A stretch of DNA of 64,000 nucleotides from Clostridia bacterium (GTDB taxonomy: Bacteria; Bacillota; Clostridia; Oscillospirales; Acutalibacteraceae). This document shows positions 6,981 to 64,000 of this stretch, in pieces. The stretch covers positions 168,646-232,645 of the forward strand of contig JAKSQK010000002.1 in the NCBI GenBank assembly GCA_024404145.1. The letters are read 5' to 3'. Below the pieces are notes generated by a model, which searched no databases, had not been told where the DNA came from, and saw only the letters and a program-made list of their open reading frames with translations. A program made the position numbers and the translations under genes. Each line of letters starts with the position of its first letter. The first letter of the stretch is position 1.

Positions 6981-7679
6981 TTATGTGTTCCACTTATAAC
7001 CCATTCCCCAAACGGTAACAAGATGTTTGGGAACGGAAGGGTCTTCCTCTATTTTCATTCTGAGGCGCCTTATGTTTACATCGACAATTTTTTCTTCGCC
7101 GTAATAACTTTCGCCCCATACTTCCTTTAAGATTTCATCTCGCATAAGGGCTTCGTCATGATGATTAAAAAAGTATTCTATCATCTGAAATTCAACCTGA
7201 GTAAGTTCTATATTTTTACCGCTTTTTGTGAGCGTTCTTCTCCGAAGGTCCAAAACAAACTCGCCGCATACCAAACGGTTTGCATCTTCTCTCGGTTTTT
7301 CTTTTTGCACGGTTACTCTTCTGTAAAGAGAGTCAACCCTTGCCAAAAGTTCCGCCGGAGAAAACGGCTTTGTAACATAATCGTCGGCACCCGTCATAAG
7401 ACCGCTAATCTTATCCATTTCCTGAGATTTTGCGGTAAGCATTATTATACCTATCGAATTATTTGTTTTCCTTATTTCTTTGCAAACTTCAATACCGCTT
7501 ATGCCCGGCATCATAATATCAAGAAGGGCAATATCAAAACCGATGACATCGCTTTTAAGTATTTCAAGGGCAGTTTCGCCGCAATCGGCTTCAACCGTTT
7601 CATATCCCGCCCTTTGAAGATTTATGGCTTCAAATTCTCTTATGGGCGTTTCGTCTTCAACTATAAGTATTCTTTTCAT
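6981..7679 (-). CDS. OmpR/PhoB-family response regulator
   Basis: Receiver domain (ILIVEDE ... LLDIMMPG ... KP) with a winged-helix C-terminus (RRLRMKIE ... VWGMGYKW). Confidence 0.9.
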   Translation of the reverse strand: MKRILIVEDETPIREFEAINLQRAGYETVEADCGETALEILKSDVIGFDIALLDIMMPGISGIEVCKEIRKTNNSIGIIMLTAKSQEMDKISGLMTGADDYVTKPFSPAELLARVDSLYRRVTVQKEKPREDANRLVCGEFVLDLRRRTLTKSGKNIELTQVEFQMIEYFFNHHDEALMRDEILKEVWGESYYGEEKIVDVNIRRLRMKIEEDPSVPKHLVTVWGMGYKWNT

Positions 7680-7693
7680 CTTTGTTACCCTTT

Positions 7694-41723: not shown

Positions 41724-42212
41724 TTAGGTAAAGGTATTAAGTATTTTAAGACTTGTTTTATCGAGTTTTGTATAGTCGGGAATTTCATAGCGGTTATCGA
41801 GATAGTCCCTTATTAAAACCCGTTTGCCCAAAAAGCGGATATCCTGACGGATTCTGTGGATATGGAAGTGGACATCTCCTTTATCCGTTTCGCAGTACCA
41901 TATAAGCCGACCTCGGTCGGTAAATCTTTTTATTCTTGTTATTTTCGGTATTCTGTAAATATCGTCTAAAAGTTCCGTTACCGCCTTTTCGGAAGCATCG
42001 TCTAAATCTGCCAAATCCTTTATGAGCGCCATTTCCTTTTCGTTGGCATCTACCAAAGCAATATACTGTCTTTTTGCGTTAACGGGGAAAAGCCGACGGG
42101 GCTCTAAACCCTCAAAATCGCCCTCGCCGTTTTTCGATTTAACCGAAACAAGATAAAAGTCTGTTCGGATTATTGAAGCATTTTCTTTTGTTAAAATATT
42201 ATGGTTGGTCAT
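41724..42212 (-). CDS. DUF1854-domain protein
   Basis: The pattern RRLFP ... YIALVD ... IPKITRI ... W.CETD.G ... RVLIRDYLDNRYEIPD ... LD matches my recollection of DUF1854. ATGA overlap with the ABC gene stop. Confidence 0.6.
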   Translation of the reverse strand: MTNHNILTKENASIIRTDFYLVSVKSKNGEGDFEGLEPRRLFPVNAKRQYIALVDANEKEMALIKDLADLDDASEKAVTELLDDIYRIPKITRIKRFTDRGRLIWYCETDKGDVHFHIHRIRQDIRFLGKRVLIRDYLDNRYEIPDYTKLDKTSLKILNTFT

Positions 42213-44479
42213 TCTTCTTCCCCCATAATCTCCGAAATATCCGCCGAGGCGCTTGTTTTATCGAGTTTTTGGATATTTACAAGTCGGTAGTATTTGCCTT
42301 TGGCTTCAAGAAGTTCCTGCGGTGTTCCGCACTCTATTATCCGCCCTTTATCGACAACAACTATCTTGTTGGCTTTTGAAAGGGTTGAAAGTCGGTGCGC
42401 TATCATAATTGTTGTTCTTCCGCTGATAAGATTTTCTATCGCCTTTTGGATAAGATGTTCCGTTTCGGAGTCAACCGAAGCGGTGGCTTCATCGAAAACT
42501 AATATTTTCGGGTCTCTGAGTACCGCTCTTGCTATCGAAATTCTCTGCCTTTCACCGCCCGAAAGACCGACACCCCTTTCGCCGATTATCGAATCGTAAC
42601 CGTTCGGCTGTCTTATGATAAACTCATGCGCATTTGCAATATCGGCGGCGGCTATAACCTGCTCGGTTGTATAATTTCCCTTTCCGTAGGCGATATTGTT
42701 GTAAATCGTATCGAAAAACATCTGCGGTTCCTGTTGAACATAACCGATGCTTGAACGGTAATAATCGAGGTCTACTGTTTTTATATCCTTACCGTCAACA
42801 AGAATTGTACCGTCATACTGCGTATAATACCTTAAAAACAGGTTTATAAGCGTAGATTTGCCCGAGCCCGTCGCTCCGACAATGCCTACTATATCGCCCG
42901 ACTCTATTTTTAGGTTTATGTTTTTTAACACCTGCTTTGAGCGGTCAAAGGAAAACGAAACATCTTTGAATTCTATCGTTCCCGACATATCGGCATCTTT
43001 GTTGCCTTTGCCGAAATCCTCCTCCGGCTCGGCATCTATTATATCCATAAGCCGTTCGGCGGAGTTCTTTGCGTTTTGGGTTGTATCCGAAAAGTTGGCA
43101 AAAAAGTTTACGGGATTATAAAACATCGAAGCATATGATATAAAGGAAACCAAAAGGCCTATGGTAGGGGCGCCTTCGTTTCCCGAAATAACGGCATTTC
43201 CGCCTATCGCCCAGATTAAAATACTGCCGAGCGAAATAAGGGCGCCAACGGTATTTGAATAAAGGTTTATTATTCTTCCCGCCTTATAATCGGCATCTTG
43301 CCAGTCGTCAACCTTTTCGGCGAAATTTTCTGCCGACCGTTTTTCGCTCGCAAAGGATTTTATAACCCTTATTCCCGGAAGATTATCGGTTAAAACCGAA
43401 CTTACGGCGGTGTTTCTGAGCCAAATTCTTCTGTAACAGGGCGCTATTTTTTTCCTGAAAATTCGGGAGCCGATAACTATAAGCGGTATCGGGCAAAGCG
43501 AAATAAGCGTCAGTTTCCAATTCATCGCCATCATAACAACTATTATTCCCACAAGAGTAAAAAGCTGAACTACAACCTCTTGCGAAACCCTTATCATAAA
43601 ACCGTTTAGATTTGCAGTATCGCCGTTTATTCGGTTGATAACCGCTCCCGTAGAGGTTTTATCGTAAAAGCGCATCGGCAAATGGGTTGCCTTTTCGTAA
43701 ACATCCTTTCTTATTCTGCCAAGCATTTTGTTGCCGGTTTTTCTTAAAAGATTTGCTCTTATAAGTCCTATGCCGTGTTCTGCTATTCTGATAACAAGAA
43801 GCGCTACGGCGATAATTATAAGCAAATCCGTTCTCTTATTGGGGATAATATTATCCACAAGTTCTTTTGTTAAAATCGGGGTGGTAAGAACCGCCGCCGT
43901 TGTTATAACCGACAAAAAAACAGAGAAGACAAGCGGTATCGTTTCGGGTTTTACATACTTATAGAAGTTATAAAGCATACCGTGATTTCGGTCGCAATGT
44001 TCGCATTTTGCGCCGTAATTACCAAGCGCTCTTCCGCATTTCGGGCAAACCGATAAATACTTTTTGAAGTAAAACTCTATCGTATCCGATGCATCTTGCA
44101 AGTCCGCTCCGCCGATAATATCGTTGAAAAAACCGACTACCGCATCGCAAAGGCGGACAATGGAAAACGAAAAACGGAAAATGTTTTTCGTCTTTTTATC
44201 GGGCAAAACCGCTCTTATCATTCCGTTGCCGTACATTCTCTTGTTGTAAAACTTTTCGGCATCAGAATAGAAAAATTTTTCGCCCTCGGTTTTTGTTTCA
44301 AAATCGAAAATCGAGAGATGATCTTTACGGCAAACAAGGGCATTTTTTTGATATTTTCCGTTCATTCCGACATCGCTTAACACAACAAAAATAATGGGAT
44401 TATCTTGGCTGTTAAGTGATAGAATTTCTTCTCTGTCTTCTTCGCAAAGTTTATCGTTTATCAAAAACGGAAGTTCCAT
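42209..44479 (-). CDS. fused ABC exporter (TMD-NBD) with about 170-aa N-terminal zinc-ribbon extension
   Basis: Walker A GATGSGKST, signature LSGGERQRISIARA, Walker B ILVFDEATS, six TM helices. The N-terminal extension contains CPKCGRALGNYGAKCEHCD. Confidence 0.85.
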   Translation of the reverse strand: MELPFLINDKLCEEDREEILSLNSQDNPIIFVVLSDVGMNGKYQKNALVCRKDHLSIFDFETKTEGEKFFYSDAEKFYNKRMYGNGMIRAVLPDKKTKNIFRFSFSIVRLCDAVVGFFNDIIGGADLQDASDTIEFYFKKYLSVCPKCGRALGNYGAKCEHCDRNHGMLYNFYKYVKPETIPLVFSVFLSVITTAAVLTTPILTKELVDNIIPNKRTDLLIIIAVALLVIRIAEHGIGLIRANLLRKTGNKMLGRIRKDVYEKATHLPMRFYDKTSTGAVINRINGDTANLNGFMIRVSQEVVVQLFTLVGIIVVMMAMNWKLTLISLCPIPLIVIGSRIFRKKIAPCYRRIWLRNTAVSSVLTDNLPGIRVIKSFASEKRSAENFAEKVDDWQDADYKAGRIINLYSNTVGALISLGSILIWAIGGNAVISGNEGAPTIGLLVSFISYASMFYNPVNFFANFSDTTQNAKNSAERLMDIIDAEPEEDFGKGNKDADMSGTIEFKDVSFSFDRSKQVLKNINLKIESGDIVGIVGATGSGKSTLINLFLRYYTQYDGTILVDGKDIKTVDLDYYRSSIGYVQQEPQMFFDTIYNNIAYGKGNYTTEQVIAAADIANAHEFIIRQPNGYDSIIGERGVGLSGGERQRISIARAVLRDPKILVFDEATASVDSETEHLIQKAIENLISGRTTIMIAHRLSTLSKANKIVVVDKGRIIECGTPQELLEAKGKYYRLVNIQKLDKTSASADISEIMGEEE

Positions 44480-44491
44480 TTTTTTGCCCTC

Positions 44492-45364
44492 CTATTCGTT
44501 AAAAAAGGCAGGAATATACCTTTTGTCTGCACTTGAAAGTTCTTGGATAAAGCACTTTTCAAAACCGCTTTCGGTTATATGATTTACCACCTTTTCGTAT
44601 TCTCTTTTGGTAACTTTTCTGTTGATTTCGGGATAATTTTCAAGGTTTTTTACAGGGGTAAACTGCCCCATCATACTAAAATAAATATTCTTGAAATTAT
44701 TTGTTAAGGTATCAAAAATCTTTATTGCCTCGTTTGTTGCAAGTGGCATTAAAAGATGCCTTACGATAACACCTTTTTTCATAATGCCTCTGTCATCAAA
44801 AACGCATTCGGGCTGTTTTTTACTAGCATAAGCGACGGCTTTAAGCGCCCGTTCGGGATAGTCTTCGGCAAAAGAATATTTTTTTGCCCTATCGTTCGAT
44901 AAATACTTAAAATCAAGCAGATAAATGTCGATAAAATCCTCTAATATTTCCAATTGGTCTTTTGTAACATATCCGCCCGAATTAAAAACTATCGGGATTT
45001 TCGGCCGATATATTAAAAGCGCCTGTCTTATTTCGTTTACATAGTGGTCGGGCGTTACAAGGTTAATGTTTTCTGCGCCCTTTTGCTCTAATTCCTTAAA
45101 AATTTCGGCAAGGTCTCTTACCGTTACGGTCTTCCCCTCGCAGTTATGGCTTACCGCAAAATTCTGACAGTAAACGCAGGAAAGCGAACAACCCGAAAAG
45201 AATACGGCGCCCGAGCCGTTGTTTCCGCTTATGGGCGGTTCTTCCCAAAAATGAAGGTCTGCTCTCGCAATTTTTACCGCCGTCGGAGCTTTACAAAAAC
45301 CGCCGTTGTTTCCTTCGGTGGTTCTTTCTGCATTACACCTTCTCGGACAAAGACTGCATTTCAT
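44492..45364 (-). CDS. radical SAM protein, PflX-like (activase-related) family
   Basis: CSLSCVYCQN CxxxCxxC motif plus N-terminal CSLCPRRC...C cluster cysteines, 290 aa. Confidence 0.7.
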   Translation of the reverse strand: MKCSLCPRRCNAERTTEGNNGGFCKAPTAVKIARADLHFWEEPPISGNNGSGAVFFSGCSLSCVYCQNFAVSHNCEGKTVTVRDLAEIFKELEQKGAENINLVTPDHYVNEIRQALLIYRPKIPIVFNSGGYVTKDQLEILEDFIDIYLLDFKYLSNDRAKKYSFAEDYPERALKAVAYASKKQPECVFDDRGIMKKGVIVRHLLMPLATNEAIKIFDTLTNNFKNIYFSMMGQFTPVKNLENYPEINRKVTKREYEKVVNHITESGFEKCFIQELSSADKRYIPAFFNE

Positions 45365-55456: not shown

Positions 55457-55969
55457 TTGGAAACGGGTAATAAGTGTTGTTTTACGGGCTACCGTCCCCA
55501 TAAATTTCCCTTTGTGCTCGAAAGCGGAGAAAAGGCGGCAACGGAGTTTGACAACCGTCTGATAAAAGCGATATGCGACCTTGCCGAAAGCGGGGTCAAC
55601 ATATTTTTCAGCGGTATGGCGATGGGATTTGATATAATTTCTGCCGAAGCGGTGCTGTATGTCAGAGCGTTGCGGCCGGATTTCAATATAAAACTGATAG
55701 CCGCCATTCCTTTTGAAAATCAGTCGGCGGGGTTTGGCGAGAAATGGAAATCCCGTTACGATAAAGTTCTATCGGAGTGCGACAGTGTTGTTCTTGTTTC
55801 GGATAGATATTACAGTGGTTGCTATTTTGCGAGAAACAAGTATATGGTTGATAATTCCGATGTTGTTGTCGCCTATTTTGACGGAAAAACCGGCGGTACG
55901 AAAAACACTCTTGCCTATGCCGAGAAACTCGGCAGAGCGATAATAAATCTTTATGACGAGGAGACATAA
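55457..55969 (+). CDS. DUF1273 / YpsA-like SLOG-family protein
   Basis: CCFTGYRPHKF start, SGMAMGFDIISAE, VAYFDGKTGGTKNTLAYA. TTG start sits 10 nt after AAGGAG. The start is uncertain. Confidence 0.7.
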   Translation: METGNKCCFTGYRPHKFPFVLESGEKAATEFDNRLIKAICDLAESGVNIFFSGMAMGFDIISAEAVLYVRALRPDFNIKLIAAIPFENQSAGFGEKWKSRYDKVLSECDSVVLVSDRYYSGCYFARNKYMVDNSDVVVAYFDGKTGGTKNTLAYAEKLGRAIINLYDEET

Positions 55970-55970
55970 A

Positions 55971-57686
55971 ATGACCGATGTATTATTTGTAACTTCAAAC
56001 ATACCGAAGTTTTCCCTGCGTCTTAACAACGATTCTCTGCTTTTGGCAACGATACTCGAAAACGCCGGAACAACTGTTAAAACTATAAGTTTCGGCGATG
56101 TTTACGACGGCGATTATTCGGAATTTGTTAAAAAACTTACGAAAGCCATCATTGAAACGGGTTGCAAAATGGTAATCTTTCAGGCATATTTCTTATCTCT
56201 GCCGGAATCGTTAAGAATTGCCGAAGAATTAAAGAAATCTGCCCCCGAAATTCCGAATTTGTTTTTCGGCGAAGAGGCAACGAATCAAGGAAAAGGGTTG
56301 CTCGAGCGAATGCCGATGATAGACTACCTTTATATAGGTGAGCCGGAATCGGTTATAGTAGATATTGTTAAAGGAATTATTAGAAAAGATACCTCTTTGC
56401 TCGGCAAAATCAACTATCTTTTTTACAAAGGCAAAGATTTATCGGCTTTTGACCCGCTTTCAAACGAAAATATTGCCGATGTCAATTCTCTGCCGACCGT
56501 ATCCGAGAAGTATTTTGTTTCGGAGGACGGCAAAACCATCAGCCCTTATATAAATATAGAAATCGGCAGAGGTTGTCCCTACCGTTGTACCTACTGTAAC
56601 ATCTGCACTTCGAGGGGCAGGAAATACCGCTTGGTTTCTCCCGAAAAATTTGTTGAAATAATAAAGCATTATACCGACCTCGGTTGCAAAAACTTCAATA
56701 TTCCGCACGATTCTCTTTTTGTTAATAAGCAAAAGGTTTTTGAGCTTTTCGATGCGATAGAAAAGAGCGGAATAAAGGCGAACTTTATTGCCGGCGGAAG
56801 AGTTGATAATGTTGACGAAGCTTTGATAGACAAGCTTGTAGACTGCGGTGTAAATTATATGTTTTTCGGGGTAGAAACGGGCTCTTTGAGAATGCAGCAG
56901 TTAATAAACAAAAAACTCGATTTAGATATGGCGCTCAAAAAATTCGATTATGTTTTGAAAAAGAACATAAAGCTCGAATGTTTCTTTATGTACGGGTTTC
57001 CCGAAGAAACCGAAGAAGATCTGAAAATGACGGTAAATATGATGATAGACCTGTTATATAAAGGTGCCATGGTTCGGTTTACGATGTGTCATTTTTCAAC
57101 AAATTCAATTCTATATAAGGAATATTTCGACCGTCTTGTTTTTCCGGGCGACTTCTATGAAGTTGAAAAAATGCAACTTGCCGACAGCAGCGAAGCCAAG
57201 TTTATTTCGGAAAATAAAGAAACCTTTGCAAACCTCTATAATCTTAAAACTCCTCTCAGAATGCGGTTTAATTATTTGAGTTTCTTTTTCCATCTGTTTT
57301 CCGATTATCCAAATACTTTTTTTGCAATGCGCGGTAAATACGGCAAAGAAAATATTCTCAATATTTATCATGATTTTATAGCGCAAAACAACAATTTCAG
57401 CGCCTTTTCTCCACAGCAACTTTACTATATGAGCATAAAAGGCGGTCCCTTTGTTGCCGAGTTTATAAATTCTTTCGGCGATACGAAAGAAGATACGGCG
57501 ATAAAGAGTATCTTTGAGTTTGAAAACGATATAAAAAAGATAAAAAAAGGCGAAACAATAATGAAAACCTATTCTTTCGATTACGAAGCGCTTAAAGCAA
57601 AATCGGATTTTGATACCGTTAAAGCCAAGAGTTCAAACCTGCTTATATATAGGCAGAAAGGCAAAATTTCGATAAGCGTTATATAA
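55971..57686 (+). CDS. B12-binding-domain radical SAM protein
   Basis: N-terminal Rossmann-like B12-type domain, radical SAM CPYRCTYC. ATG lies 1 nt after the upstream stop and is preceded by GAGGAGACATAAA. Confidence 0.75.
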   Translation: MTDVLFVTSNIPKFSLRLNNDSLLLATILENAGTTVKTISFGDVYDGDYSEFVKKLTKAIIETGCKMVIFQAYFLSLPESLRIAEELKKSAPEIPNLFFGEEATNQGKGLLERMPMIDYLYIGEPESVIVDIVKGIIRKDTSLLGKINYLFYKGKDLSAFDPLSNENIADVNSLPTVSEKYFVSEDGKTISPYINIEIGRGCPYRCTYCNICTSRGRKYRLVSPEKFVEIIKHYTDLGCKNFNIPHDSLFVNKQKVFELFDAIEKSGIKANFIAGGRVDNVDEALIDKLVDCGVNYMFFGVETGSLRMQQLINKKLDLDMALKKFDYVLKKNIKLECFFMYGFPEETEEDLKMTVNMMIDLLYKGAMVRFTMCHFSTNSILYKEYFDRLVFPGDFYEVEKMQLADSSEAKFISENKETFANLYNLKTPLRMRFNYLSFFFHLFSDYPNTFFAMRGKYGKENILNIYHDFIAQNNNFSAFSPQQLYYMSIKGGPFVAEFINSFGDTKEDTAIKSIFEFENDIKKIKKGETIMKTYSFDYEALKAKSDFDTVKAKSSNLLIYRQKGKISISVI

Positions 57687-57690
57687 AAAC

Positions 57691-57720
57691 AAAAAATCTC
57701 GTCATTGACGAGATTTTTTT
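57691..57720. terminator. bidirectional terminator shared by the convergent operons
   Basis: AAAAAATCTCGTC-att-GACGAGATTTTTTT. It overlaps the last codons of the peptidase gene. Confidence 0.8.
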
Positions 57721-58175
57721 ATTTTTGCTTTTAATTTTCTTAAATTTTTCGTTACCGCTTTTCTCCAAACCTTTCTTATGGGGAAAGAACAATAGTTGAT
57801 AAAGGTATAGAATTTATAAAGCGCCGAAGGGTTTTCGCAGTTTATTAAATGCTTTTTGTTTCGGTAAATTTCTTTGAGAACACCTATTACCCGCTCTTTG
57901 GCTATTGTTTCGGTGCTTATCAGGTTGTCGCCTCTGAAAATATAGTCAGTATCTGTTTCTTTGATTATTCGGTGCAAAACCAAATTTCCTTTTTTGGCTC
58001 TGTAAAGCGCAACATCGAATTTTTTAAGCGGTCTTTCCGCCTTTACAACACGGGCAATATCCTTGCCTTCACGCAAAAGCGGACGCATACTTATTCCAAC
58101 GGTAAGCGATAAATACTCGCCGTTTTTTTCAATTTGTTCCTCGGCAGATAGTTTTTTATTGTCCATATTCTTCAA
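57702..58175 (-). CDS. S24/S26-family (SipW-type) serine peptidase without N-terminal membrane anchor
   Basis: GISMRPLL (Ser nucleophile box), LHRII (His/Lys box), FRGDNL box. Hydrophilic N-terminus and a basic amphipathic C-tail. Start is TTG 58175 or ATG 58166. Confidence 0.65.
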   Translation of the reverse strand: MKNMDNKKLSAEEQIEKNGEYLSLTVGISMRPLLREGKDIARVVKAERPLKKFDVALYRAKKGNLVLHRIIKETDTDYIFRGDNLISTETIAKERVIGVLKEIYRNKKHLINCENPSALYKFYTFINYCSFPIRKVWRKAVTKNLRKLKAKIKKSRQ

Positions 58176-58183
58176 CCGTAAAA

Positions 58184-59248
58184 TTATGCCTTAAATTTTT
58201 TCTTATATAGCGCCCTTTTTCTTTTTCGGGGCAAATCGGGGATTTTATTTTCCCTTATGTAATCGAAAACGGGTTTTCCTTTCGGCGCCATATCATACAT
58301 TTGGGTTATCATAGTTCCGGGGGTGTTGTTAAGTTCGATAATACAAGCGCCTTCCTCCGTAACGGCTATATCCCAGCCGATAAGCGTTGCCTGGTATGCT
58401 TTTTTTGCGCCCTCCGTTGCAACCCTCTTAACCTCATCGAAATTAGGGACCTCGAAACCGATTATTTTCTTGTTTGATTCGGGGTGAAAGTAATATTTGT
58501 TTCGGTAAAAATCGTATGCCGGAGTGCAAACGATACCGCTTTCGATATCTATTGTGGCTCCGAGACCTTCATGGCGGATATTATCTACAACGCAGTCGCC
58601 GATACCGATTTTAAGCGTTGCGGAAATTATTTTTATGTTGCCGCCCTCGTTAAGCGTAACAATTCTCGCCGTATTAACCGAATCGGAATGCATTTCTGCT
58701 AATTCGTGATGCTGAACTATATAATCCTCGCATAGATATTTTCTGCCTAAGGTTTTTATGTATGCCTCGTAGAGTTCTTTTTCGTCGCCGTTGTTTTCGT
58801 AAACAAAAACCCCCGCCCCGAGAGAGCCCTGACAGGGTTTGAAAACAACCTTTTTCCGTCCCTTAATAAACTCTTTAATTTGTTCCAGTTTTTTGCTGTC
58901 GTCTTCAAGGCAGATAAAATCCCTTTTTATAAGGTCTTTGCCGAAAAGTTTATACTGCTTGTCCTTGCCGTGCTCCTCGCCTTTTTTGGCGATAGTTTTG
59001 TTAAATCGCAAATAGGTAATATACTGGTCGTATTTAACAAGATAATTTTTTCGGTAACAGTCCCTTAAATTATAGAACTTGTAAAAATCGTATTCGGTTG
59101 GCAAAACCTTATAATGCAAATAGCAATGAAGCATATCGACAGTTCTTGCAAAAAGCTTAAAACCTTTGTATGCCTCGTCGGTTTTACCCGTTTTGCAAAA
59201 GGTTGCGTAGTTTTGCAAAAAAACGGGAAAGTATTTATATATTTTCAT
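58184..59248 (-). CDS. ATP-grasp ligase (resembles the 'sugar-transfer associated' ATPgrasp_ST group)
   Basis: FKPCQGSLGAGVFV nucleotide-binding loop and the IIELNNTPG Mg-ATP motif. ATG at 59248 preceded by GAAGG. Confidence 0.65.
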   Translation of the reverse strand: MKIYKYFPVFLQNYATFCKTGKTDEAYKGFKLFARTVDMLHCYLHYKVLPTEYDFYKFYNLRDCYRKNYLVKYDQYITYLRFNKTIAKKGEEHGKDKQYKLFGKDLIKRDFICLEDDSKKLEQIKEFIKGRKKVVFKPCQGSLGAGVFVYENNGDEKELYEAYIKTLGRKYLCEDYIVQHHELAEMHSDSVNTARIVTLNEGGNIKIISATLKIGIGDCVVDNIRHEGLGATIDIESGIVCTPAYDFYRNKYYFHPESNKKIIGFEVPNFDEVKRVATEGAKKAYQATLIGWDIAVTEEGACIIELNNTPGTMITQMYDMAPKGKPVFDYIRENKIPDLPRKRKRALYKKKFKA

Positions 59249-59259
59249 TGTTAAACCTT

Positions 59260-60378
59260 CTATTCGATAGCAATGAAAGAGTATTTTTTCTTCGGATGGA
59301 AGAATATCTCTTCCCCAAAACATTCATAAGGATTTACCTTAAAAACATTATCGTTTAGCGAAATCAGCCCGTCTGCTTTTGAAAGGCCGAGCGGAATTAC
59401 CTTCTGATATTTTGAGATTAAACCGTTAATCTTGTGCCTTCTCGAAGAAAAATCGACAGTCAGGTTGCAATAATACGGCTTTCCGCTGTCCTCCTTTACG
59501 GCAAAAGCATCATTGCAGTAAAAGAAAATCTTTTGCGGAGTAAACGGCAGGGAGATTTCGAAATTGTTTGTCGGCTCGGTGGGAGTCCAGTTAGCAAGAA
59601 AGGTGCGTTTGCTCTTTTTTATCTCCAAAAAACCGTTTGTTTTCGATATTATATTTTCTTCGGTTTCGCTTTTATCGAAAATTGTATTATAAGCCGTCAA
59701 TGCCGAACCGACATCTTTGTTGCATTTGATTTTCCAAATTTTAACATTTTCCAAAAGACGGTCGATAAGGGAGAGCGTATCGTTTAGCGCCTTCGGATTT
59801 CTCGGCATATAAACCTGACTTGCTATAAGTTCCGTTGCCGATTTTTTATCCAAAAGTTCGGTTTCGTTTTTGTCGGCGCGTTCGATAAAGCAAAGGTGTT
59901 TCAGTTCGGTTTTCGTATTTGTACCGAACTTTTCTTTGCCGGTCCAAGGGGTGCCGTAAGCAAAAATCTTATCGTCAAAAAACCTTATTATCGGCTTGTC
60001 GCCGTTAACTATCGTCATTTTTTCGCCCAAAAGTTTTTGCCAATTAAGCATATGGGTTGTTTTTCCCGTTCCGCTTCTTGCGGCAAAGGCAATACCGTTG
60101 CCCTCTATATCGAGAACAACCGAATGAAAAACGAAAGCGCCGAAAAGGGGCAAAACATCGCCGAGTTTTCTGAATCCGGCAATTTCCGCCACATAACCTT
60201 TTGCCATTTTTAGTTGCTCTTTATCAAAAAGGATTTCCTGATTTATATCCTCTTTTGTAACCTCTATCGAAATATCGGCTTTCGTATCGTCTGTTCGGTA
60301 GTCGGTCATACGGTGCTCAAACAGGTTGTCGATAGCATTAAAGTCTACGGTAAAGTCGGCAATTTTGAAACAAGGCAT
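59260..60378 (-). CDS. HPr-kinase-like P-loop protein fused to about 140-aa C-terminal domain of unknown function
   Basis: FHSVVLDIEGNGIAFAARSGTGKTT matches the lHa.av...g.a.l..G.SG.GKST pattern of HprK-related kinases. No match recognised for residues from about 235 to 372. Confidence 0.6.
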   Translation of the reverse strand: MPCFKIADFTVDFNAIDNLFEHRMTDYRTDDTKADISIEVTKEDINQEILFDKEQLKMAKGYVAEIAGFRKLGDVLPLFGAFVFHSVVLDIEGNGIAFAARSGTGKTTHMLNWQKLLGEKMTIVNGDKPIIRFFDDKIFAYGTPWTGKEKFGTNTKTELKHLCFIERADKNETELLDKKSATELIASQVYMPRNPKALNDTLSLIDRLLENVKIWKIKCNKDVGSALTAYNTIFDKSETEENIISKTNGFLEIKKSKRTFLANWTPTEPTNNFEISLPFTPQKIFFYCNDAFAVKEDSGKPYYCNLTVDFSSRRHKINGLISKYQKVIPLGLSKADGLISLNDNVFKVNPYECFGEEIFFHPKKKYSFIAIE

Positions 60379-60380
60379 AA

Positions 60381-60647
60381 TTATTCTTCCAAAAGGTCGG
60401 CTGTTTTTAATTTTTCAATAATAGCTTCTGCGCTTTCCTTTGCTTCTTGCGTTGTGCAGTCAAATTTTGCAACACAGCTGTTTATAAGCTCATCGGAAGT
60501 ACAGCCGTTACCGAGTTGTTCGATAATGAAAGCCGCCGTTTCGTTTAGTTTAAGGAATCCGCTAAACGAATTTTTGTTGTCGTCAACGGGAACTGCGATA
60601 TAATTTCCCGACATTTCATTAATTACAAATTTAATTTTAAGTTTCAT
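60381..60647 (-). CDS. PqqD-family peptide chaperone (RiPP recognition element)
   Basis: 88 aa. The pattern ...YIAVPV ... LNETAAFIIEQLGNGCTSDELINSCVAKFDCTTQEAKESAEAIIEKL is PqqD-like. ATG preceded by AGGAGC. 11-nt overlap with the rSAM stop. Confidence 0.75.
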   Translation of the reverse strand: MKLKIKFVINEMSGNYIAVPVDDNKNSFSGFLKLNETAAFIIEQLGNGCTSDELINSCVAKFDCTTQEAKESAEAIIEKLKTADLLEE

Positions 60648-61998
60648 TTGTGTTGCTCCTTTTATCATACATATTTTTCATTTGGTTTTCTAACATATTT
60701 CGGTAGTTTTCTTCGTCGGTTTCGTCGCACCTTCTCGGCATACTTTCGCAAGACTGCGGATAAAGGCACATAGGCATAAACTTGCAACCGTCGCATTTAT
60801 CGCAAACTTTTTGAGTATGTTTATACCAGTTTAGCTCATCAATATTTATTTCTTCGGAATAAACACTGCCCCAAAAATGGTCGTCGGTATGGCGTTGGCA
60901 TTTTCCGAGGTTGCCGTCGGGTAAAATCATAACGGTAGAGTTAGAATCCGCCATACAGTGGACATGCCTTCTCGAATAATAAGGGTTGTAAAATTTTTTG
61001 TTCAAATTGTTATAGATATAGCGCTGTAACTCGATTTGCTTTTTGATAATTTCATGGCGGTTATCGGAATCTCGGTTTTCTATTCTCGCACAAGAATCCT
61101 CAAACAGCAAATGAACATATAAAACAAAACCGTCGTACTTTGAAAAACGGGCGATTAAATAATCGGTCAGCGCTTTAAGGTCGTCGGCGTTGTGGTCGTC
61201 CATATTCATTCTTATTTGAACATCAATTCCGCTTTTTAGCAGGTTTTCAACATTGCCTACAACCCTCTTAAAAGCGCTTTTTTCGCTCTTGTCTACATAA
61301 GCTTTTGTTGTGTTGTAAACTTCCTCGGTGCCGTCGAGAGTTATCTGCACCCAGTTCAGATGCCATTCGTTTTTGGCGCGTTTAATTAAATCTTCATCAA
61401 AGAGATAGCCGTTGGTAGTCATTTTTGAATTAAATTTAATGTTTTCGCTGTTCAGTTTGTTACAGATAGTATCAATGGCTTTAATATTGCATAGCGGTTC
61501 TCCGCCGAACCAACGAAGAACGGTATTGTTTTTCGTTCGGTGGTTTATAATATACTCTGCCGATTTAAGCGCCGTTTCCTCGCTCATATTTATATGCTTT
61601 GCATCTTTTTCAAAGCAGTAAAAACATCTTGCGTTGCAATTAGTTGTCGGCAAAATTGTAAAAGTTTTGATGTTTGAAACTTTTCGCAGTTTGTTCGTTA
61701 AAAAATAAAGAGAGTTCATCTGTTCGCAAAAAGCAAAGTCATCAAAATCGCGCGGAACTAAAAACCGGTTATTTATTAAATATTCGGTCAGTTCGTTTCT
61801 TTCGGAAGAATCAAGAAAACAGCCGTATTCGCTCTGCTCAAGGAAAATAAGTTCCGCCGATAAAAGATTATATACCAAATATCCGCCGTTGTGCTTTATT
61901 GTATGTAGATAAAAAAACGGGCGGTATTCTTTATTTTCAGTTTGCTGTTTTGGGGCCATTGCCGAAAAAAACTTATCGGTACTGTTTATTTTTATCAT
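60637..61998 (-). CDS. radical SAM/SPASM-domain peptide maturase with N-terminal RRE-like region
   Basis: CNARCFYC (CxxxCxxC) after about 115 aa. C-terminal auxiliary-cluster cysteines: CMADS ... GKCQRH ... CDKCDGCKFMPMCLYPQSCESMPRRC. RBS GGAGAAAAAGA. Confidence 0.85.
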   Translation of the reverse strand: MIKINSTDKFFSAMAPKQQTENKEYRPFFYLHTIKHNGGYLVYNLLSAELIFLEQSEYGCFLDSSERNELTEYLINNRFLVPRDFDDFAFCEQMNSLYFLTNKLRKVSNIKTFTILPTTNCNARCFYCFEKDAKHINMSEETALKSAEYIINHRTKNNTVLRWFGGEPLCNIKAIDTICNKLNSENIKFNSKMTTNGYLFDEDLIKRAKNEWHLNWVQITLDGTEEVYNTTKAYVDKSEKSAFKRVVGNVENLLKSGIDVQIRMNMDDHNADDLKALTDYLIARFSKYDGFVLYVHLLFEDSCARIENRDSDNRHEIIKKQIELQRYIYNNLNKKFYNPYYSRRHVHCMADSNSTVMILPDGNLGKCQRHTDDHFWGSVYSEEINIDELNWYKHTQKVCDKCDGCKFMPMCLYPQSCESMPRRCDETDEENYRNMLENQMKNMYDKRSNTNET

Positions 61999-62085
61999 TC
62001 TTTTTCTCCGTTTGCTGTAGGTTTATATTATTATGAATTATTAAATTACAGCAGGGCTGTAACCTAATAATACATAATAATTATG

Positions 62086-62117
62086 AAAAAAACCATCCCT
62101 AATAAGGGATGGTTTTT
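62086..62117 (-). terminator. intra-operon hairpin/terminator between precursor ORF and maturase
   Basis: Minus strand: AAAAACCATCCCT-tatt-AGGGATGGTTTTTTT. Confidence 0.7.
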
Positions 62118-62120
62118 CCC

Positions 62121-62136
62121 TTGTGATGCATCACAA
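62121..62136. promoter_or_regulatory. perfect 16-nt palindrome TTGTGATGCATCACAA
   Basis: Located 8 nt downstream of the precursor stop codon. Could be an RNA hairpin or a dimeric-protein binding site. Confidence 0.4.
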
Positions 62137-62143
62137 AGTTAAA

Positions 62144-62248
62144 TTACTGCATTGAAGGCGGAACTACACAGAACCACTCTTCTTCTTCCTCTTCAGAAGT
62201 TGTGATAACATCGTTAATCATAACGATATCCATTTCAGCGAATTTCAC
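62144..62248 (-). CDS. candidate RiPP precursor peptide, 34 aa: MKFAEMDIVMINDVITTSEEEEEEWFCVVPPSMQ
   Basis: Own translation. GTG start sits 6 nt after GGAGGTG (62261-62255), with a TAA stop at 62146-62144. It lies directly upstream of, and co-directional with, the rSAM/PqqD genes. It is below the ORF-track size cut-off. Confidence 0.6.
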   Translation of the reverse strand: MKFAEMDIVMINDVITTSEEEEEEWFCVVPPSMQ

Positions 62249-62274
62249 TTGACACACCTCCTATAAAGATTTTT

Positions 62275-62309: not shown

Positions 62310-62314
62310 AATAA

Positions 62315-62338
62315 AGGGGGCACAATTTGTACCCCCCT
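62315..62338 (-). terminator. terminator after the Cys-rich repeat protein gene
   Basis: Minus strand: GGGGGGTAC-aaatt-GTGCCCCC followed by TTTATT. Lies 25 nt after the stop. Confidence 0.7.
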
Positions 62339-62362
62339 TATTTTCAAAAACGCTTTATGATA

Positions 62363-64000
62363 TTAGTTGTAACCAAACATAGCTCTAATTGAGATGCCGA
62401 ATTTAGCAAGTGCTGTGCACATTGCACCGTTCTTAGCATCATCAAGCATAGAACCGCAGTAGGTTTCGAGCGAATATGTATCGGTCATGATAACATCGCC
62501 GTTATAAGTTACAACAGCGGTTATTGTCTTGTAAGAATCATAAAGTGCCATAGAGTTAAAGTAACAATAAGCGTAAGTGTTCTTACCTCCAACCGTTGTG
62601 GTAAGTTCGCTACCTGTATAGGTTTCTCTTATTGTTTCCTCTCCGCCGCTTGCAGTATTGTTACTGGTAACATAACTGATATCGATAGAGAGTTTGTCTA
62701 AGTCATAAATAGTACCGTTCTTGTTCGAAATAGTAAGCTGATATGCGAACGAAGGAGCAGCAACGAGTGTTACAGAGCTTGTATAGTTGCAAGCTGAATT
62801 GTAATTAGCGCCCTGCTGTTTATCGTTAACATCATTAAGTCCGGTAATTACTGTTTCGGCATCGGTTGCTACAGGATATGAATATGTAGGATCAGCTGCA
62901 TCAACATAAACTGTAATCTTGCCTAAATCAGATTCTGCCGGAGCGCCGTTTGCCTGGAAGTATCTCTGGGCTTCGCCGCCGAGAATTAACAAATCGCGAG
63001 CTGCAGCTCTTGTATTTGCTTTTCTGGTTTTAGCAGCTGTCTTATCGCTTGTCTTAGGAAGATTTGACTGATACAATTCCTTCAAAAGAACATCAGGACG
63101 GCTGGTAATATCAGCAGTATAAGCTATCTTGTTGCCCTTAGCATCGAAGAACTCAAGGTGAGCGTCTATCGGTAAGTCAAGAGCATACATAGCAACACCG
63201 TAGTAGTTGGTGTATAAATATCCTGAGGCGCTACCGAATTCAGTAAATACGGACGGCTCTGCTATCATCTTATTAAATGCAAAACCGTTGATATCATAAA
63301 CGGTAGGAGTTACAACAAGTTTTACCGAAGCGGTATTTTCGGGCATATCTGCCTCTAACCACTGATATGCAATGCCAAGCTGAGCGCCGATAGCAACGGA
63401 AGCAGCGAACGAATCAACTGTTACGAGCTGGGGCTCAATAGCAACTTCGCGAACATAGCCGCAAGTATTACATGTATCGTCAGCATCGTTGTCATAAATA
63501 TGAGCAGCGGTGTCAACTTCTGCACTACAGCAGCTCCATACTTTCCAGTGGTTGTCAGCGTCTTTCTGCCAGTCGCCTAATGTACCGGTATGGTTAGTAG
63601 CATTAACTTCGCCGAATTCATAAGTTCCGGCAACTGATTTATCACAAGCTCCGCATACGCAGGTCTTGTAGTAAACAGCTTTTGCAGTACATGTAGCAGC
63701 TGACTTTAATGTATCGCCATTTTGTACTGTTGTCTGATCATAAACATGAGCTTCGAGTGCGCCGTATTTAGCACCGCAAGTAGCACATTCTGCTTTTTCT
63801 GTGCATGTAGCTGTTCCGCCTGCATGAGCAGCCTTATCAGCTTCTGCACTACAGCAGCTCCATACTTTCCAGTGGTTGTCAGCGTCTGTCTGCCAGTCGC
63901 CCTTTGTACCGGTATGGTTAGTAGCGTCTACTGTGCCGTATTTAGCACCGCAAGTAGCACATTCTGCCTGTGCTGTACATGTAGCTGTTCCGCCTGCATG
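62363..64000 (-). CDS. large Cys-rich repeat protein, C-terminal part (5' end beyond window)
   Basis: I translated 64000..63347 by hand. The frame is open and continuous with the 327-aa track ORF. Repeated modules are HAGGTATCTxxAECATCGAKYG and NHTGTxGDWQxDADNHWKVWSCCSAExDxAAH. Confidence 0.7.
   Translation of the reverse strand, partial: HAGGTATCTAQAECATCGAKYGTVDATNHTGTKGDWQTDADNHWKVWSCCSAEADKAAHAGGTATCTEKAECATCGAKYGALEAHVYDQTTVQNGDTLKSAATCTAKAVYYKTCVCGACDKSVAGTYEFGEVNATNHTGTLGDWQKDADNHWKVWSCCSAEVDTAAHIYDNDADDTCNTCGYVREVAIEPQLVTVDSFAASVAIGAQLGIAYQWLEADMPENTASVKLVVTPTVYDINGFAFNKMIAEPSVFTEFGSASGYLYTNYYGVAMYALDLPIDAHLEFFDAKGNKIAYTADITSRPDVLLKELYQSNLPKTSDKTAAKTRKANTRAAARDLLILGGEAQRYFQANGAPAESDLGKITVYVDAADPTYSYPVATDAETVITGLNDVNDKQQGANYNSACNYTSSVTLVAAPSFAYQLTISNKNGTIYDLDKLSIDISYVTSNNTASGGEETIRETYTGSELTTTVGGKNTYAYCYFNSMALYDSYKTITAVVTYNGDVIMTDTYSLETYCGSMLDDAKNGAMCTALAKFGISIRAMFGYN
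63517..63925. repeat. near-identical 85-nt direct repeats (63517-63601 and 63841-63925) inside the repeat-protein gene
   Basis: cttctgcactacagcagctccatactttccagtggttgtcagcgtct... occurs twice with about 4 mismatches, 324 nt apart. A second 66-nt pair lies at 63761-63826 and 63935-64000. Confidence 0.9.

Follow-up and report, generated by a model that had tools for sequence, protein, structure and literature searches.

Peptides that are cross-linked by rSAM/SPASM enzymes are the closest described relatives of the system presented here. CteB links Cys to Thr, and SPASM enzymes can make C-C links as well. In the maturation of QHNDH the gamma-subunit QhpC is cross-linked by QhpD, relieved of its leader, exported and assembled with Sec-exported subunits, and it serves as a precedent for a RiPP-like peptide as protein subunit. 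HPr-kinase-like proteins are found together with PqqD-like proteins in two other systems, both of them defined bioinformatically: the SynChlorMet cassette consists of ScmC, the PqqD-like ScmD and the rSAM/SPASM proteins ScmE and ScmF, and the HPr-rel-A system consists of HprK-related kinases A/B, PqqD and a nucleotidyltransferase. PapB, which matures the freyrasin precursor PapA, depends on an Asp/Glu located downstream of the Cys, and takes Glu as well as Asp (PMC9413430). SCIFF-type ranthipeptides have been linked with quorum sensing in clostridia (work cited in PMC9389541).

The locus analysed here lies near the end of the window, i.e., the whole stretch of 64,000 nucleotides that was studied, and its features are collected in Table 1. 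The peptide gene is followed by the rSAM/SPASM, PqqD, ScmC-like, ATP-grasp and S26-like genes, all on one strand. The sequence-only reading, made without database searches, had placed the peptide ORF beside an rSAM/SPASM gene, and both gene order and motifs confirmed this. We consider it fairly probable that the ORF encodes a RiPP precursor, which would be bound through its leader, receive a predicted rSAM thioether at Cys27, be tailored further and be cut after Ser18.

Table 1. Features of the peptide locus, with positions in the window.
Feature	Position	Strand	Basis or remarks
Large gene, 3' part	62363..64000	minus	Incomplete at the window edge; open for 545 codons or more
Terminator-like hairpin	62310..62342	minus	3' of the upstream large gene, 5' of the peptide gene
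Shine-Dalgarno GGAGGTG	62255..62261	minus	Read directly; 6 nt ahead of the GTG start
Predicted precursor-peptide gene	62144..62248	minus	34 codons + TAA; sequence and translation, unique family HMM match
Leader, residues 1-18	62195-62248	minus	Boundary from family conservation
Core, residues 19-34, EEEEEEWFCVVPPSMQ	62147-62194	minus	Boundary from family conservation
Stop codon of the peptide ORF	62144-62146	minus	
Double hairpin directly 3' of the peptide stop	62085..62138	minus	Between the precursor and rSAM genes
rSAM/SPASM peptide maturase, 453 aa	60637..61998	minus	Pfam/NCBIfam, invariant Cys, CteB likeness
PqqD-family RiPP recognition protein	60381..60668	minus	PF05402, E 1.4e-10
ScmC-like / HPr-kinase-like P-loop protein	59260..60378	minus	Orthologues with precomputed Pfam ScmC label
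ATP-grasp ligase (RimK-like)	58184..59323	minus	PF14397; probable start near 59248
S26 signal-peptidase homologue, Ser-His (Sec11/SipW/archaeal) type	57702..58175	minus	TIGR02228, E 9e-7
B12-binding rSAM (ApyD-like)	55953..57686	plus	NF050148, E 6e-51, far below its cutoff

The peptide translates as MKFAEMDIVMINDVITTSEEEEEEWFCVVPPSMQ*, with the leader and the core divided as MKFAEMDIVMINDVITTS|EEEEEEWFCVVPPSMQ. The 16-residue core holds six Glu, a single Cys (Cys27) and no Lys/Arg. Read 5' to 3', the start region is ATAGGAGGTG TGTCAA GTG AAA TTC..., with the GTG start at 62248-62246. The ribosome binding site, its spacing and the 34-aa product given in the sequence-only reading were all reproduced; the strand, which had not been stated there, is the minus strand. 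A second in-frame GTG at 62257 (MCQV...) was rejected as a start, as it overlaps the ribosome binding site and has no backing from relatives. In the nearest full-length relative, L096/P0248 (MKFAEMDIVLLNDVITTS...), an ATG is aligned exactly with the GTG of the window, and GGAGGA lies ahead of it. The hairpin at 62342-62310 was folded with -23.3 kcal/mol (z -5.0), and the one at 62120-62085 with -28.7 kcal/mol (61-nt stretch folded, z -7.5). The second hairpin of the pair behind the peptide gene looks like an intrinsic terminator, with a T-run behind its stem, and equivalent double hairpins are located 3' of the peptide genes of L096 and L081. No sigma-70-like promoter was found by a simple scan. 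The ORF had been described as unannotated, which agrees with its absence from the records: an exact look-up of three possible products (start variants) gave no entry in a collection of 15 billion proteins, and the GenBank tags run in steps of 5 from MJ090_03220 (372 aa) to MJ090_03235 (the 327-aa upstream protein), a gap that fits PqqD and rSAM only, so that no GenBank tag is left for the peptide.

Judged by its relatives, the 34-codon ORF is a real gene and not a chance ORF. A family HMM built from 249 independent peptides, the window peptide left out, was run on the 1,845 six-frame segments of the window and recovered it as the sole match (E 4.8e-9; runner-up E 4.2), and single relatives matched it in phmmer (P0248, E 1.7e-10; P0266, 3.9e-8; P0183, 3.4e-6). 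Between L002 and L085 the peptide codons differ by six synonymous changes and one conservative (D/E) change, and the 100 nt upstream show 48% identity in an ungapped comparison; mostly synonymous changes next to diverged upstream DNA thus point to conservation at the protein level. The relatives of the window peptide vary in length without leaving the frame, and both the Glu run and the Cys are retained in them. The sequence-only reading had named as signs of a false ORF a lack of conservation, or conservation merely of nucleotides (hairpin) with frame-breaking indels, and is contradicted in neither respect by a frame that the relatives keep and change synonymously; the alignment of relatives that it had proposed for finding conserved residues showed, besides the Glu run and the Cys, invariant Asp13 and Ser18 in the leader. 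That the frame arose by chance, or is merely RNA structure (terminator/attenuator) upstream of the rSAM gene, can practically be dismissed: AT-rich DNA commonly has short ORFs, hairpins flank this one and the record carries no annotation for it, but the unique HMM match, the in-frame and mostly synonymous variation, and the canonical ribosome binding site with GTG changed to ATG in a relative all stand against it. The annotated genome is in this way extended by a real gene, whose product is a candidate substrate for an uncharacterised rSAM/SPASM enzyme.

The peptide family, for which we coined the label "DVITTS-leader", is a large and unnamed family from gut and rumen Clostridia. Its leader has the pattern M-K-x3-E-[IV]-V-x-F-x3-D-V-I-T-T-S and is kept across more than 270 peptides, while the core is short, acidic and nearly without Lys/Arg. 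D-V-I-T-T-S is the best-conserved stretch, with its Asp (Asp13 in the window) and Ser (Ser18) in 100% of the members. The division into a leader and a core half in the sequence-only reading holds, but T16-T17-S18 belong to the leader, as part of its most conserved stretch, and not to the core. The window peptide was placed in the family by the HMM, by its core composition and by the C-terminus of the upstream protein. Its leader, as that of P0248, has a loop two residues shorter than the family pattern, and for this reason an HMM from 19-aa leaders missed it, while the full-length HMM matched. Homology searching of 5.8 billion proteins, with an alignment as query and a 47-aa relative as its first sequence, gave 2,521 matches at E<=10, and all of the 120 matches listed (120/120) were unnamed and without Pfam; 211 cluster representatives of the family were obtained at E<=1e-3. 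Scans of the window peptide and 35 relatives against Pfam and NCBIfam returned nothing meaningful. The analysis therefore defines a very large precursor family for which no name, Pfam/NCBIfam model, paper or other published description was found in literature and database searches. A DNA-pattern scan of metagenomes for DVITTS-x-EEEE gave one match only, a false positive within a DegP-like protease. The layout of the window peptide recurs in a poly-Glu-Cys subfamily consisting of P0248 AEEEEDCCDTPGFMMG, P0266/L081 EEEEECFNPNAFM, P0246 NEEEEEEEGCIPGALGM, P0183/L085 LEEEEEECIFGAVGM, L002 LEEEEEDCIFGAVGM and P0360 FEEEELGCLPGDFGMNI.

The rSAM enzyme contains CX3CX2C (C121/125/128) and seven SPASM Cys (C348, 367, 402, 405, 411, 417, 424), invariant in 30 homologues, and has an RRE-like domain at its N-terminus. 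Its relatives were found at 476 places in a species-representative genome set. The best sequence match in PDB was CteB (5WGG, E 8e-20), and with the AF2 model (pLDDT 85.6) CteB was again the best over the full length, followed by TigE, anSME and SuiB; the fold alignment to CteB comprised 442 columns, N-terminal region included. All of the NCBIfam models closest to it describe peptide maturases, with PapB, CefB, Clo7bot and TIGR04463 at the top and QhpD among the matches. The best score is 150 bits against a cutoff of 525, and since the enzyme falls far below every curated cutoff, its chemistry is not transferable by homology. The locus shares with thioether RiPPs an adjacent precursor and rSAM with these two Cys sets, a conserved leader together with a RiPP recognition element (binding predicted), and a core Cys as candidate sulfur donor that the presence of the rSAM tracks. 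As in CteB/SCIFF and freyrasin PapA/PapB, an rSAM/SPASM enzyme with an RRE-like N-terminus is encoded beside a small precursor that is made up of a leader and a Cys core. Unlike them, the window has an rSAM that scores far below the family cutoffs, a leader from a different, unnamed family, and in addition genes for ScmC-like, S26-like and ATP-grasp proteins, as well as a secreted protein that is constantly encoded upstream; unlike in SCIFF and PapA, the core has one Cys instead of six, with the acids upstream and no Cys-X3-Asp/Glu. Assignment to the PapB/freyrasin-type ranthipeptides was rejected on the missing Asp/Glu after Cys27 and a maturase score of 89.5 bits against the NF047865 cutoff of 340, and assignment to SCIFF (~45 aa, six Cys; TIGR03973/TIGR03974) on the single Cys in 34 aa and the lack of an NCBIfam match to the window peptide. 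An anSME-type formylglycine was rejected, the peptide having no CxPxR motif.

Eight family peptides were sampled without regard to their neighbours, and an rSAM gene adjoined all three Cys cores and none of the five Cys-less ones, the 2x2 sample being small (3 vs 5). In the leader-motif search every peptide adjoining an rSAM homologue had at least one Cys, except one Cys-less tandem copy (L066). For three of the five Cys-less cores in the neighbour-blind sample, the surrounding genes include ScmC, PqqD, an ABC exporter and an S26-like gene. Because the presence of the rSAM tracks the core Cys, the enzyme most likely makes a thioether at Cys27, and this co-occurrence also backs the earlier choice of the single Cys as candidate site.

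Less can be claimed for the hexaglutamate, to which the sequence-only reading had tentatively joined the Cys. That the rSAM bonds the sulfur of Cys27 to one of Glu19-24, at its beta or gamma carbon, giving a PapB/QhpD-type ranthipeptide, appears to us possible but rather unlikely. PapB (89.5 bits) and QhpD (54.8 bits) are among the NCBIfam matches, most listed members of the poly-Glu subfamily have a Glu at i-3 from the Cys, and 18 of 80 single-Cys cores have acids upstream of the Cys only, always as a run. However, all the family scores are far under the curated cutoffs, and CteB, the closest solved relative, joins Cys to Thr and not to an acid. Cores contain 24-28% Asp/Glu regardless of Cys or rSAM neighbour, so that acid-rich cores are equally typical of Cys-less peptides in rSAM-less clusters, and no cross-link is needed to account for the Glu run. 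Within the family, Asp/Glu enrichment is highest at Cys+3 (0.41), an acid that the window peptide lacks. PapB accepts Glu and Asp alike, but the acid is required downstream of the Cys (PMC9413430), and with no acid after Cys27 the PapB motif is lacking.

The second link suggested earlier, a PqqE-like C-C bond that would join the Trp25 or Phe26 ring to a Glu gamma carbon and leave the Cys uninvolved, is highly improbable. Such bonds are within the repertoire of SPASM enzymes, a PqqD protein is present, and Glu24 adjoins Trp25 and Phe26; yet the nearest relatives EEEEECFNPNAFM, NEEEEEEEGCIPGALGM and LEEEEEECIFGAVGM lack aromatics beside the Glu run and keep the Cys. The rSAM tracks the Cys and not the aromatics, with many Cys-less Trp/Phe cores standing without an rSAM neighbour, and no PqqE model is among the best 25 NCBIfam matches shown. 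The PQQ precursor type (Glu-X3-Tyr) was rejected on the latter ground as well, and because the window peptide has no Tyr and its aromatics are not conserved.

Many related loci also have the rSAM, PqqD, ScmC-like and S26-like genes; BLAST over 95 loci and the window found PqqD in 51/96, the ScmC-like gene in 56/96 and the S26-like gene in 30/96. Orthologues of these four proteins were identified in L081, L084, L085 and L087. The sequence-only reading was silent on the PqqD, ScmC-like, ATP-grasp and S26-like genes and on the pairing with an upstream secreted protein. For PqqD the probable start is Met8 (60647), as orthologues align from residue 8. The ScmC-like protein consists of a P-loop part (residues 1-236) with an invariant SGTGKTTH motif, and a 136-aa C-terminal extension common only to L001; HprK_rel_B, ScmC and the HPr kinase family all match it weakly. 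Among the loci examined, the ATP-grasp ligase was present only in the window and in L001. The B12-binding rSAM gene is convergent with the cluster and has a homologue in one other locus only (L070), and its membership in the cluster is uncertain.

The trio of HPr-kinase-like P-loop protein, PqqD and rSAM/SPASM enzyme resembles the SynChlorMet cassette and the HPr-rel-A system, and the rSAM-less relative L087 has an NTP_transf_5 gene as in the latter. The matches are, however, weak (TIGR04353, 19 bits against a cutoff of 35), and the window cluster differs in that its precursor family is identifiable, as are a homologue of signal peptidases and a secreted protein paired with the peptide. With TIGR04249 (ScmC) the window copy gave no match, and 22 of 29 orthologues matched weakly (best 1.3e-6). 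Membership in SynChlorMet was rejected on this lack of a TIGR04249 match and on scores of 42 bits for ScmE and 41 for ScmF against a cutoff of 400, while the architecture is similar. A description of a ScmC-like/PqqD/rSAM/DVITTS system was not found in our literature searches, and peptides of this family are now candidate substrates for the ScmC-type HPr-kinase-like/PqqD cassettes.

Over 27 orthologues of the S26-like protein M27, P29, H65, R66, G79 and D80 are invariant, and G24, S26 and N81 are each shared by 90% or more. The GxSMxP motif with the catalytic Ser, the HR motif and the GDN box place it in peptidase family S26; its profile matches bacterial SPase I as well as SEC11A/C (E 5.7e-5 and 2.2e-4), in alignments that take in the Ser, His and GDN motifs. 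Signal peptidases follow the -3/-1 small-residue rule, and T-T-S at the end of the leader resembles such a cleavage site. The protein differs from Sec11/SipW signal peptidases in its TIGR02228 score of 28.9 against a cutoff of 51.85, which makes it a divergent homologue, in having no obvious transmembrane anchor when inspected by eye, and in its presumed substrate, an acidic leader instead of a hydrophobic signal. With the score below the cutoff and no evident anchor, the protein is a candidate leader peptidase, which would probably cut after Ser18. This suggests a signal-peptidase homologue working as leader peptidase, and to our knowledge none has been described as a RiPP leader peptidase.

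In the maturation pathway that we favour, PqqD and/or the RRE-like domain of the rSAM would bind the beta-strand-prone leader. The CteB-like rSAM/SPASM enzyme would then take an H atom from a core residue and join the carbon to the Cys27 sulfur, and the product would have one intramolecular thioether (-2 Da). The acceptor, if an acid, would have to be upstream of the Cys, with Glu24 (i-3) as the best-conserved candidate in the poly-Glu subfamily, and this would be the reverse orientation compared with PapB substrates; for enzymology, the possible outcome is thus either a reverse-orientation (acid-then-Cys) or a non-acid thioether. The HPr-kinase-like and ATP-grasp proteins may add ATP-dependent tailoring, and the Sec11/SipW-type homologue may remove the leader after Ser18, with Thr at -3 and Ser at -1. 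The mature acidic peptide would probably act with the secreted protein encoded just upstream; the C-terminal domain of that protein co-occurs with the peptide family.

The upstream large gene probably encodes a secreted protein, as a Sec-type signal peptide was present in all eight full-length upstream proteins whose N-terminus was read (8/8). In the window the readable part has Cys-rich repeats, followed by a C-terminal domain of ~300 aa ending in ...ALAKFGISIRAMFGYN. For about 40 of 54 peptide copies, a gene for a large protein (500 to more than 3,000 aa) ends at most ~100 nt ahead of the peptide gene, and all peptide-first contexts in which the upstream sequence could be read show the pairing. 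The N-terminal parts of these proteins differ (GH95, alpha-amylase with CBM26, Cys-rich repeats), and the C-terminal domain is common, with ..YS[VI]E[ST]Y...K[FL]G.SAR.YF. The pairing with secreted proteins, polysaccharide-degrading enzymes among them, hints at a role in the deployment of extracellular enzymes by gut and rumen Clostridia. A profile of 34 copies of this domain had no PDB or Pfam match, the AF2 model from three sequences was unusable at pLDDT 44, and a word-index homology search with the 327-aa upstream region, limited by the index, returned only itself and one relative.

This near-constant pairing of one peptide family with proteins of differing N-termini and a common C-terminal domain raises the idea, compatible with the pathway above, that the peptide is a small partner or subunit of that domain. 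As happens with QhpC, the cross-linked gamma-subunit, maturation in the cytoplasm would come first, and the peptide would be bound after its export. We regard this as tentative and unlikely, and give the same low weight to its extension to the whole family, in which DVITTS-leader peptides would be matured partners for an unrecognised C-terminal domain of secreted Clostridial proteins, GH95 and alpha-amylase included. Two Cys-less copies follow such glycoside hydrolases and have no maturase in their vicinity, and QhpD is among the distant matches of the rSAM. Against this, the idea rests on gene adjacency, a terminator-like hairpin lies between the two genes in the window, the domain profile matches nothing in PDB or Pfam, and co-transcription with a secreted enzyme suits a signalling peptide equally well. 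The likeness to QHNDH maturation consists in a small leader-bearing Cys/acidic peptide beside genes for a SPASM enzyme and secreted proteins. Unlike there, the window has no dehydrogenase/haem subunit, Trp-quinone motif or subtilisin-type QhpE, and the partner proteins are glycoside hydrolases and proteins without assigned function; membership was rejected with QhpD at 54.8 bits against the TIGR03906 cutoff of 453 and dehydrogenase genes absent from the cluster. If the partner idea is true, the ScmC-like, PqqD and Sec11-like genes, with or without rSAM, would be the maturation machinery for a peptide-protein pairing that could be a cell-surface tether, an assembly subunit or a regulator, and the long-orphaned ScmC / HprK-related and PqqD cassettes would have a first substrate and a biological role.

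Short, highly acidic peptides are atypical as antimicrobials, and this speaks against one half of the remaining explanation, namely an exported signalling (quorum-sensing) or antimicrobial peptide whose secreted-protein neighbours reflect co-regulation only. We consider it unlikely. Related rSAM-less clusters do have an ABC exporter, one of them also a LytTR-domain gene, but no exporter, receptor kinase or regulator was found in the cluster of the window, and the common C-terminal domain of the upstream proteins would be left unexplained. SCIFF-type ranthipeptides lend it some support through their tie to clostridial quorum sensing (work cited in PMC9389541).

A lasso peptide was rejected, since neither a lasso cyclase nor a B2 protease is present and the core has no lasso features. 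Paeninodin-type lasso clusters of Firmicutes are nevertheless alike in that a PqqD-family RRE and an HPr-kinase-like enzyme work on a precursor peptide, and the nearest NCBIfam match of the window PqqD is the lasso-peptide PqqD chaperone. HPr kinase is also discussed in lasso-peptide reviews.

The short ORF proposed in the sequence-only reading, together with its ribosome-binding site, was present on the minus strand, and is listed in the table with the other features of the cluster. A longer in-frame GTG start (62257) was rejected, as it overlaps the RBS; the nearest full-length relative, in locus L096, has ATG at the position of the GTG. Terminator-like hairpins flank the ORF at 62342-62310 (z -5.0) and 62120-62085 (z -7.5). 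The GenBank locus tags of the neighbouring genes, MJ090_03220 and MJ090_03235, leave none free for the peptide, which is therefore unannotated, and the peptide was not found by exact look-up in a collection of 15 billion proteins. Homologues of the rSAM enzyme numbered 3,443 proteins (E<=1e-20), and neighbourhoods were gathered for 80 genome loci out of 476 relatives. Small ORFs upstream of these homologues had a common leader, e.g., MKAYLEIVELKNDIITTS... and MKFELEIVKFNVNDVITAS.... A profile search with the family peptides against 5.8 billion sequences gave 2,521 proteins at E<=10; the 120 matches listed were all 29-77 aa long, and none among them had a name or a Pfam domain. A second, index-free search gave 211 cluster representatives at E<=1e-3. 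Searched against the 1,845 segments of the six-frame translated window, a family HMM from which the window peptide was left out had its sole match at 62144-62260 (minus; E 4.8e-9). A codon comparison between two relatives showed six synonymous changes and one Asp/Glu change, and length differences between relatives were whole codons. Conservation at the nucleotide level only, with frame-breaking indels, had been named as the outcome speaking against the gene; it is excluded by the unique HMM match, the mostly synonymous substitutions and the whole-codon lengths. Judged by its sequence, 62144-62248 is a real gene. Full-text literature searches found no paper on the leader, the peptide family or the gene set. 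The antiSMASH-style ranthipeptide calls in a rumen survey depend on the SCIFF model TIGR03973 (PMC13289728), and such calling would therefore leave the locus unflagged.

Features of the peptide cluster and its upstream gene in the window
Feature	Coordinates	Strand	Remarks
Upstream large gene	62363-64000	minus	open to the window edge
RBS GGAGGTG	62261-62255	minus	six bases ahead of GTG
Precursor ORF	62144-62248	minus	GTG start; product MKFAEMDIVMINDVITTSEEEEEEWFCVVPPSMQ
rSAM/SPASM enzyme	60637-61998	minus	CX3CX2C and seven SPASM Cys
PqqD protein		minus	cluster gene downstream of peptide
ScmC-like protein		minus	372 aa; residues 1-236 orthologous to proteins with precomputed Pfam label ScmC
ATP-grasp ligase		minus	PF14397
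S26-like protein		minus	157 aa; signal-peptidase motifs

In 249 aligned peptides the leader ended in D-V-I-T-T-S, with Asp and Ser at 100%, the two Thr at 98% and 92%, and Val/Ile at the remaining two positions, while positions beyond the Ser were hypervariable across the family. The earlier division into a leader half and a core half stood, but T16-T17-S18, formerly listed after the leader-like half, belong to the leader, because conservation runs through the Ser and hypervariability starts after it; the window core is EEEEEEWFCVVPPSMQ. Family cores are short, with a median length of 14-17 aa, and acidic (Asp/Glu 24-28%), with Lys/Arg at only 1.6-2.8%, and this is the same with or without Cys. 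The leader variant of the window, AEM(D/E)IV, is common to a subfamily with poly-Glu followed by Cys. Related cores are AEEEEDCCDTPGFMMG (peptide P0248), EEEEECFNPNAFM (P0266), NEEEEEEEGCIPGALGM (P0246), LEEEEEECIFGAVGM (P0183, in locus L085), LEEEEEDCIFGAVGM (locus L002) and FEEEELGCLPGDFGMNI (P0360). P0266 agrees with ...DCFNPNAFM, a truncated C-terminal end from L081, the locus whose rSAM is closest to that of the window (57%). The subfamily keeps the Glu run, then Cys after 0-2 residues, and a hydrophobic, Pro/Gly-containing tail of 7-9 residues, mostly ending near Met.

Five genes follow the peptide downstream on the same strand, and the genes farther left are housekeeping. The top NCBIfam matches of the rSAM were peptide maturases (TIGR04463, Clo7bot, CefB, FlmE/OhkG, PapB and QhpD), all far below cutoffs. 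Its best solved relative by sequence was CteB (E 8e-20), which was also the best fold match of the AF2 model (pLDDT 85.6, pTM 0.85), with 442 columns aligned including the N-terminal region, followed by TigE, anSME, SuiB and SkfB. When gene contexts were sampled starting from peptides instead of enzymes, an rSAM homologue was adjacent to three of three Cys-containing cores (P0183, P0124, P0215) versus none of five Cys-less ones (P0172, P0156, P0221, P0136, P0199). Three of the latter lay together with genes for ScmC, PqqD, an S26-like protein and an ABC exporter; the other two had no maturase within 7 kb. In the leader-motif search all peptides adjoining rSAM homologues carried Cys, except the tandem second copy in L066. 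There (7535-7874), the rSAM is followed by two tandem family peptides, Cys-less EIGGVDEGLGDGGSED and Cys-containing GCDCDYVHETTIGGGYGTSQ. Because rSAM adjacency tracks Cys both ways, the rSAM is, as read from gene context, an add-on module employed where the core has Cys. The proposal that the single Cys is the rSAM target thus held, and a Cys-derived thioether is the best-supported prediction for the chemistry, since the rSAM tracks Cys and has CteB-like architecture.

The Glu partner proposed for this Cys fared less well. A Cys27-Glu thioether would be only one option, with Glu24 (i-3) as the most consistently placed candidate acceptor. Family-wide, Asp/Glu is enriched at Cys+3 (0.41 vs about 0.24 overall); an acid run before Cys with no acid after it occurs in 18 of the 80 single-Cys cores, the window's included. 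PapB, a characterised Cys-Asp/Glu enzyme, requires the acid downstream of Cys (PMC9413430), so a link to the upstream acids of the window would have reversed polarity. Because Cys-less cores without rSAM are just as acidic, the Glu tract is more readily accounted for by a functional property common to the whole family than by a role in cross-linking. The PqqE-like Glu-aromatic bond, also suggested earlier, is disfavoured, since Trp25 and Phe26 showed no conservation across the poly-Glu subfamily cores and the rSAM follows Cys.

In the family leader, position -1 is invariably Ser and position -3 is Thr/Ala, within an extended beta-prone segment, which fits the classical -1/-3 rule for signal-peptidase cleavage sites. 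A Sec11/SipW-type homologue is the sole protease-like gene conserved in these clusters; from both observations we infer that it would cut the leader off after Ser18. In the S26-like family M-x-P, H-R and G-D are invariant, Gly and Ser of the catalytic motif and Asn of the GDN box are kept in at least 90% of members, and the profile aligns with SEC11A/SEC11C and bacterial signal peptidase I exactly over the catalytic motifs. The invariance of Ser18 and Asp13 might also come from the chemistry of the HPr-kinase-like protein, e.g., phosphorylation; the ScmC-like protein has an invariant P-loop, SGTGKTTH, and matches HprK-related kinase B, ScmC and HPr kinase weakly. With cleavage after Ser18 as the preferred step, we hold the composite mechanism as a whole to be somewhat probable. 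Its firmest parts are the Cys-directed rSAM step and the predicted precursor role of the ORF, which was supported by the family leader and the adjacent maturation genes. By its gene content the locus would encode a pathway of the RRE-dependent kind in which an rSAM/SPASM enzyme makes a thioether RiPP. It failed the defining tests of PapB, SCIFF, PQQ, QhpD and SynChlorMet in each case, and so far as sequence tells is outside all curated families; its accessory gene set is closest to the SynChlorMet and HPr-rel-A cassettes, both uncharacterised.

The peptide was paired more tightly with an upstream secreted protein than with the rSAM. In about 40 of 54 copies examined the peptide gene was preceded, at a distance of at most about 100 nt, by the gene for a protein of 500 to >3,000 aa, and all peptide-first contexts with readable upstream sequence had a large upstream protein. 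All eight full-length upstream proteins with the N-terminus read had a Sec-type signal peptide. Their N-terminal parts are wholly unlike (GH95, alpha-amylase with CBM26, Cys-rich repeats, or unknown), whereas the C-terminal ~300 residues are homologous throughout, end in ..YS[VI]E[ST]Y....A[LI].K[FL]G.SAR.YF and had no relative in Pfam or PDB. This pairing suggests, as a lead and not a finding, that the mature peptide works together with the C-terminal domain, possibly the more novel aspect of the system. The nearest known precedent is QhpC, a small subunit that is cross-linked by an rSAM enzyme and belongs to a secreted dehydrogenase. The GenBank annotation of the upstream gene (MJ090_03235) covers just its final 327 aa; as the frame is open for at least 545 codons, the start is probably mis-called. 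This gene has repeated Cys-rich modules (HAGGTATCT.KAECATCGAKYG...NHTGT.GDWQ.DADNHWKVWSCCSAE). Giant secreted proteins, followed after roughly 15-60 nt by Cys-less peptides, were found in L089 (1220-7135, two peptide copies), L090 (3018-7102) and L091 (1-8105), the proteins being a 1,921-aa GH95, a 1,319-aa alpha-amylase with CBM26 and one of >3,000 aa. No maturation genes lie within 7 kb in L089 or L090, which implies that these peptides are matured in trans or not matured.

The rSAM, PqqD, ScmC-like and S26-like genes co-recur across many loci. The ATP-grasp gene and the long-form ScmC-like protein were found, besides the window, only in L001, whose rSAM is 49% identical. The 136-aa C-terminal extension of the latter protein (59260-59670, minus) had no family match, is weakly similar (24% identity) to its L001 counterpart (1681-2823), and co-occurs with the ATP-grasp gene in both. 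Convergent with the last gene of the cluster is a B12-binding, ApyD-like rSAM (55953-57686, plus; 174 bits, far below cutoff), with a homologue in one other locus only, L070. An ABC transporter of 756 aa, extended at its N-terminus by ~180 aa (42209-45364, minus), adjoins a 290-aa radical-SAM protein, 13 kb off the cluster. Clusters lacking the rSAM, in the order peptide, ScmC-like, PqqD, S26-like and ABC exporter, occur in L087 (6239-11745), L091 (8001-11732) and L092 (196-3558). In L087 there are, in addition, a second protein (240 aa), a LytTR-domain gene and an NTP_transf_5 nucleotidyltransferase, with which it resembles the HPr-rel-A system. The poly-Glu relative L085 (9288-13149; also L002 and L086) has two ScmC-like paralogues, one between peptide and rSAM, two tandem PqqD genes, and downstream a 536-aa unknown protein and a LemA gene. 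Bacteroidales rSAM homologues (L037, L051, L059, L062, L067) go with a longer, different leader (..KK.FEKPE.EVV..) and multi-Cys cores. Both peptide copies of L037 (5689-5847, 12499-12672) stand behind proteins with C-terminal ...GIYI.NGKK.AIQ, which looks like a T9SS sorting domain, and the arrangement parallels the Clostridia pairing with secreted proteins. In L064 (3681-4166), a Clostridia contig with three rSAM homologues, the upstream ORFs are extremely Cys-rich repeats, e.g., ...CECETVCNCNNDTTCSCNTDCTCNSNKTCTCDDVCKC..., and by sequence are a different type of substrate for the same rSAM family.
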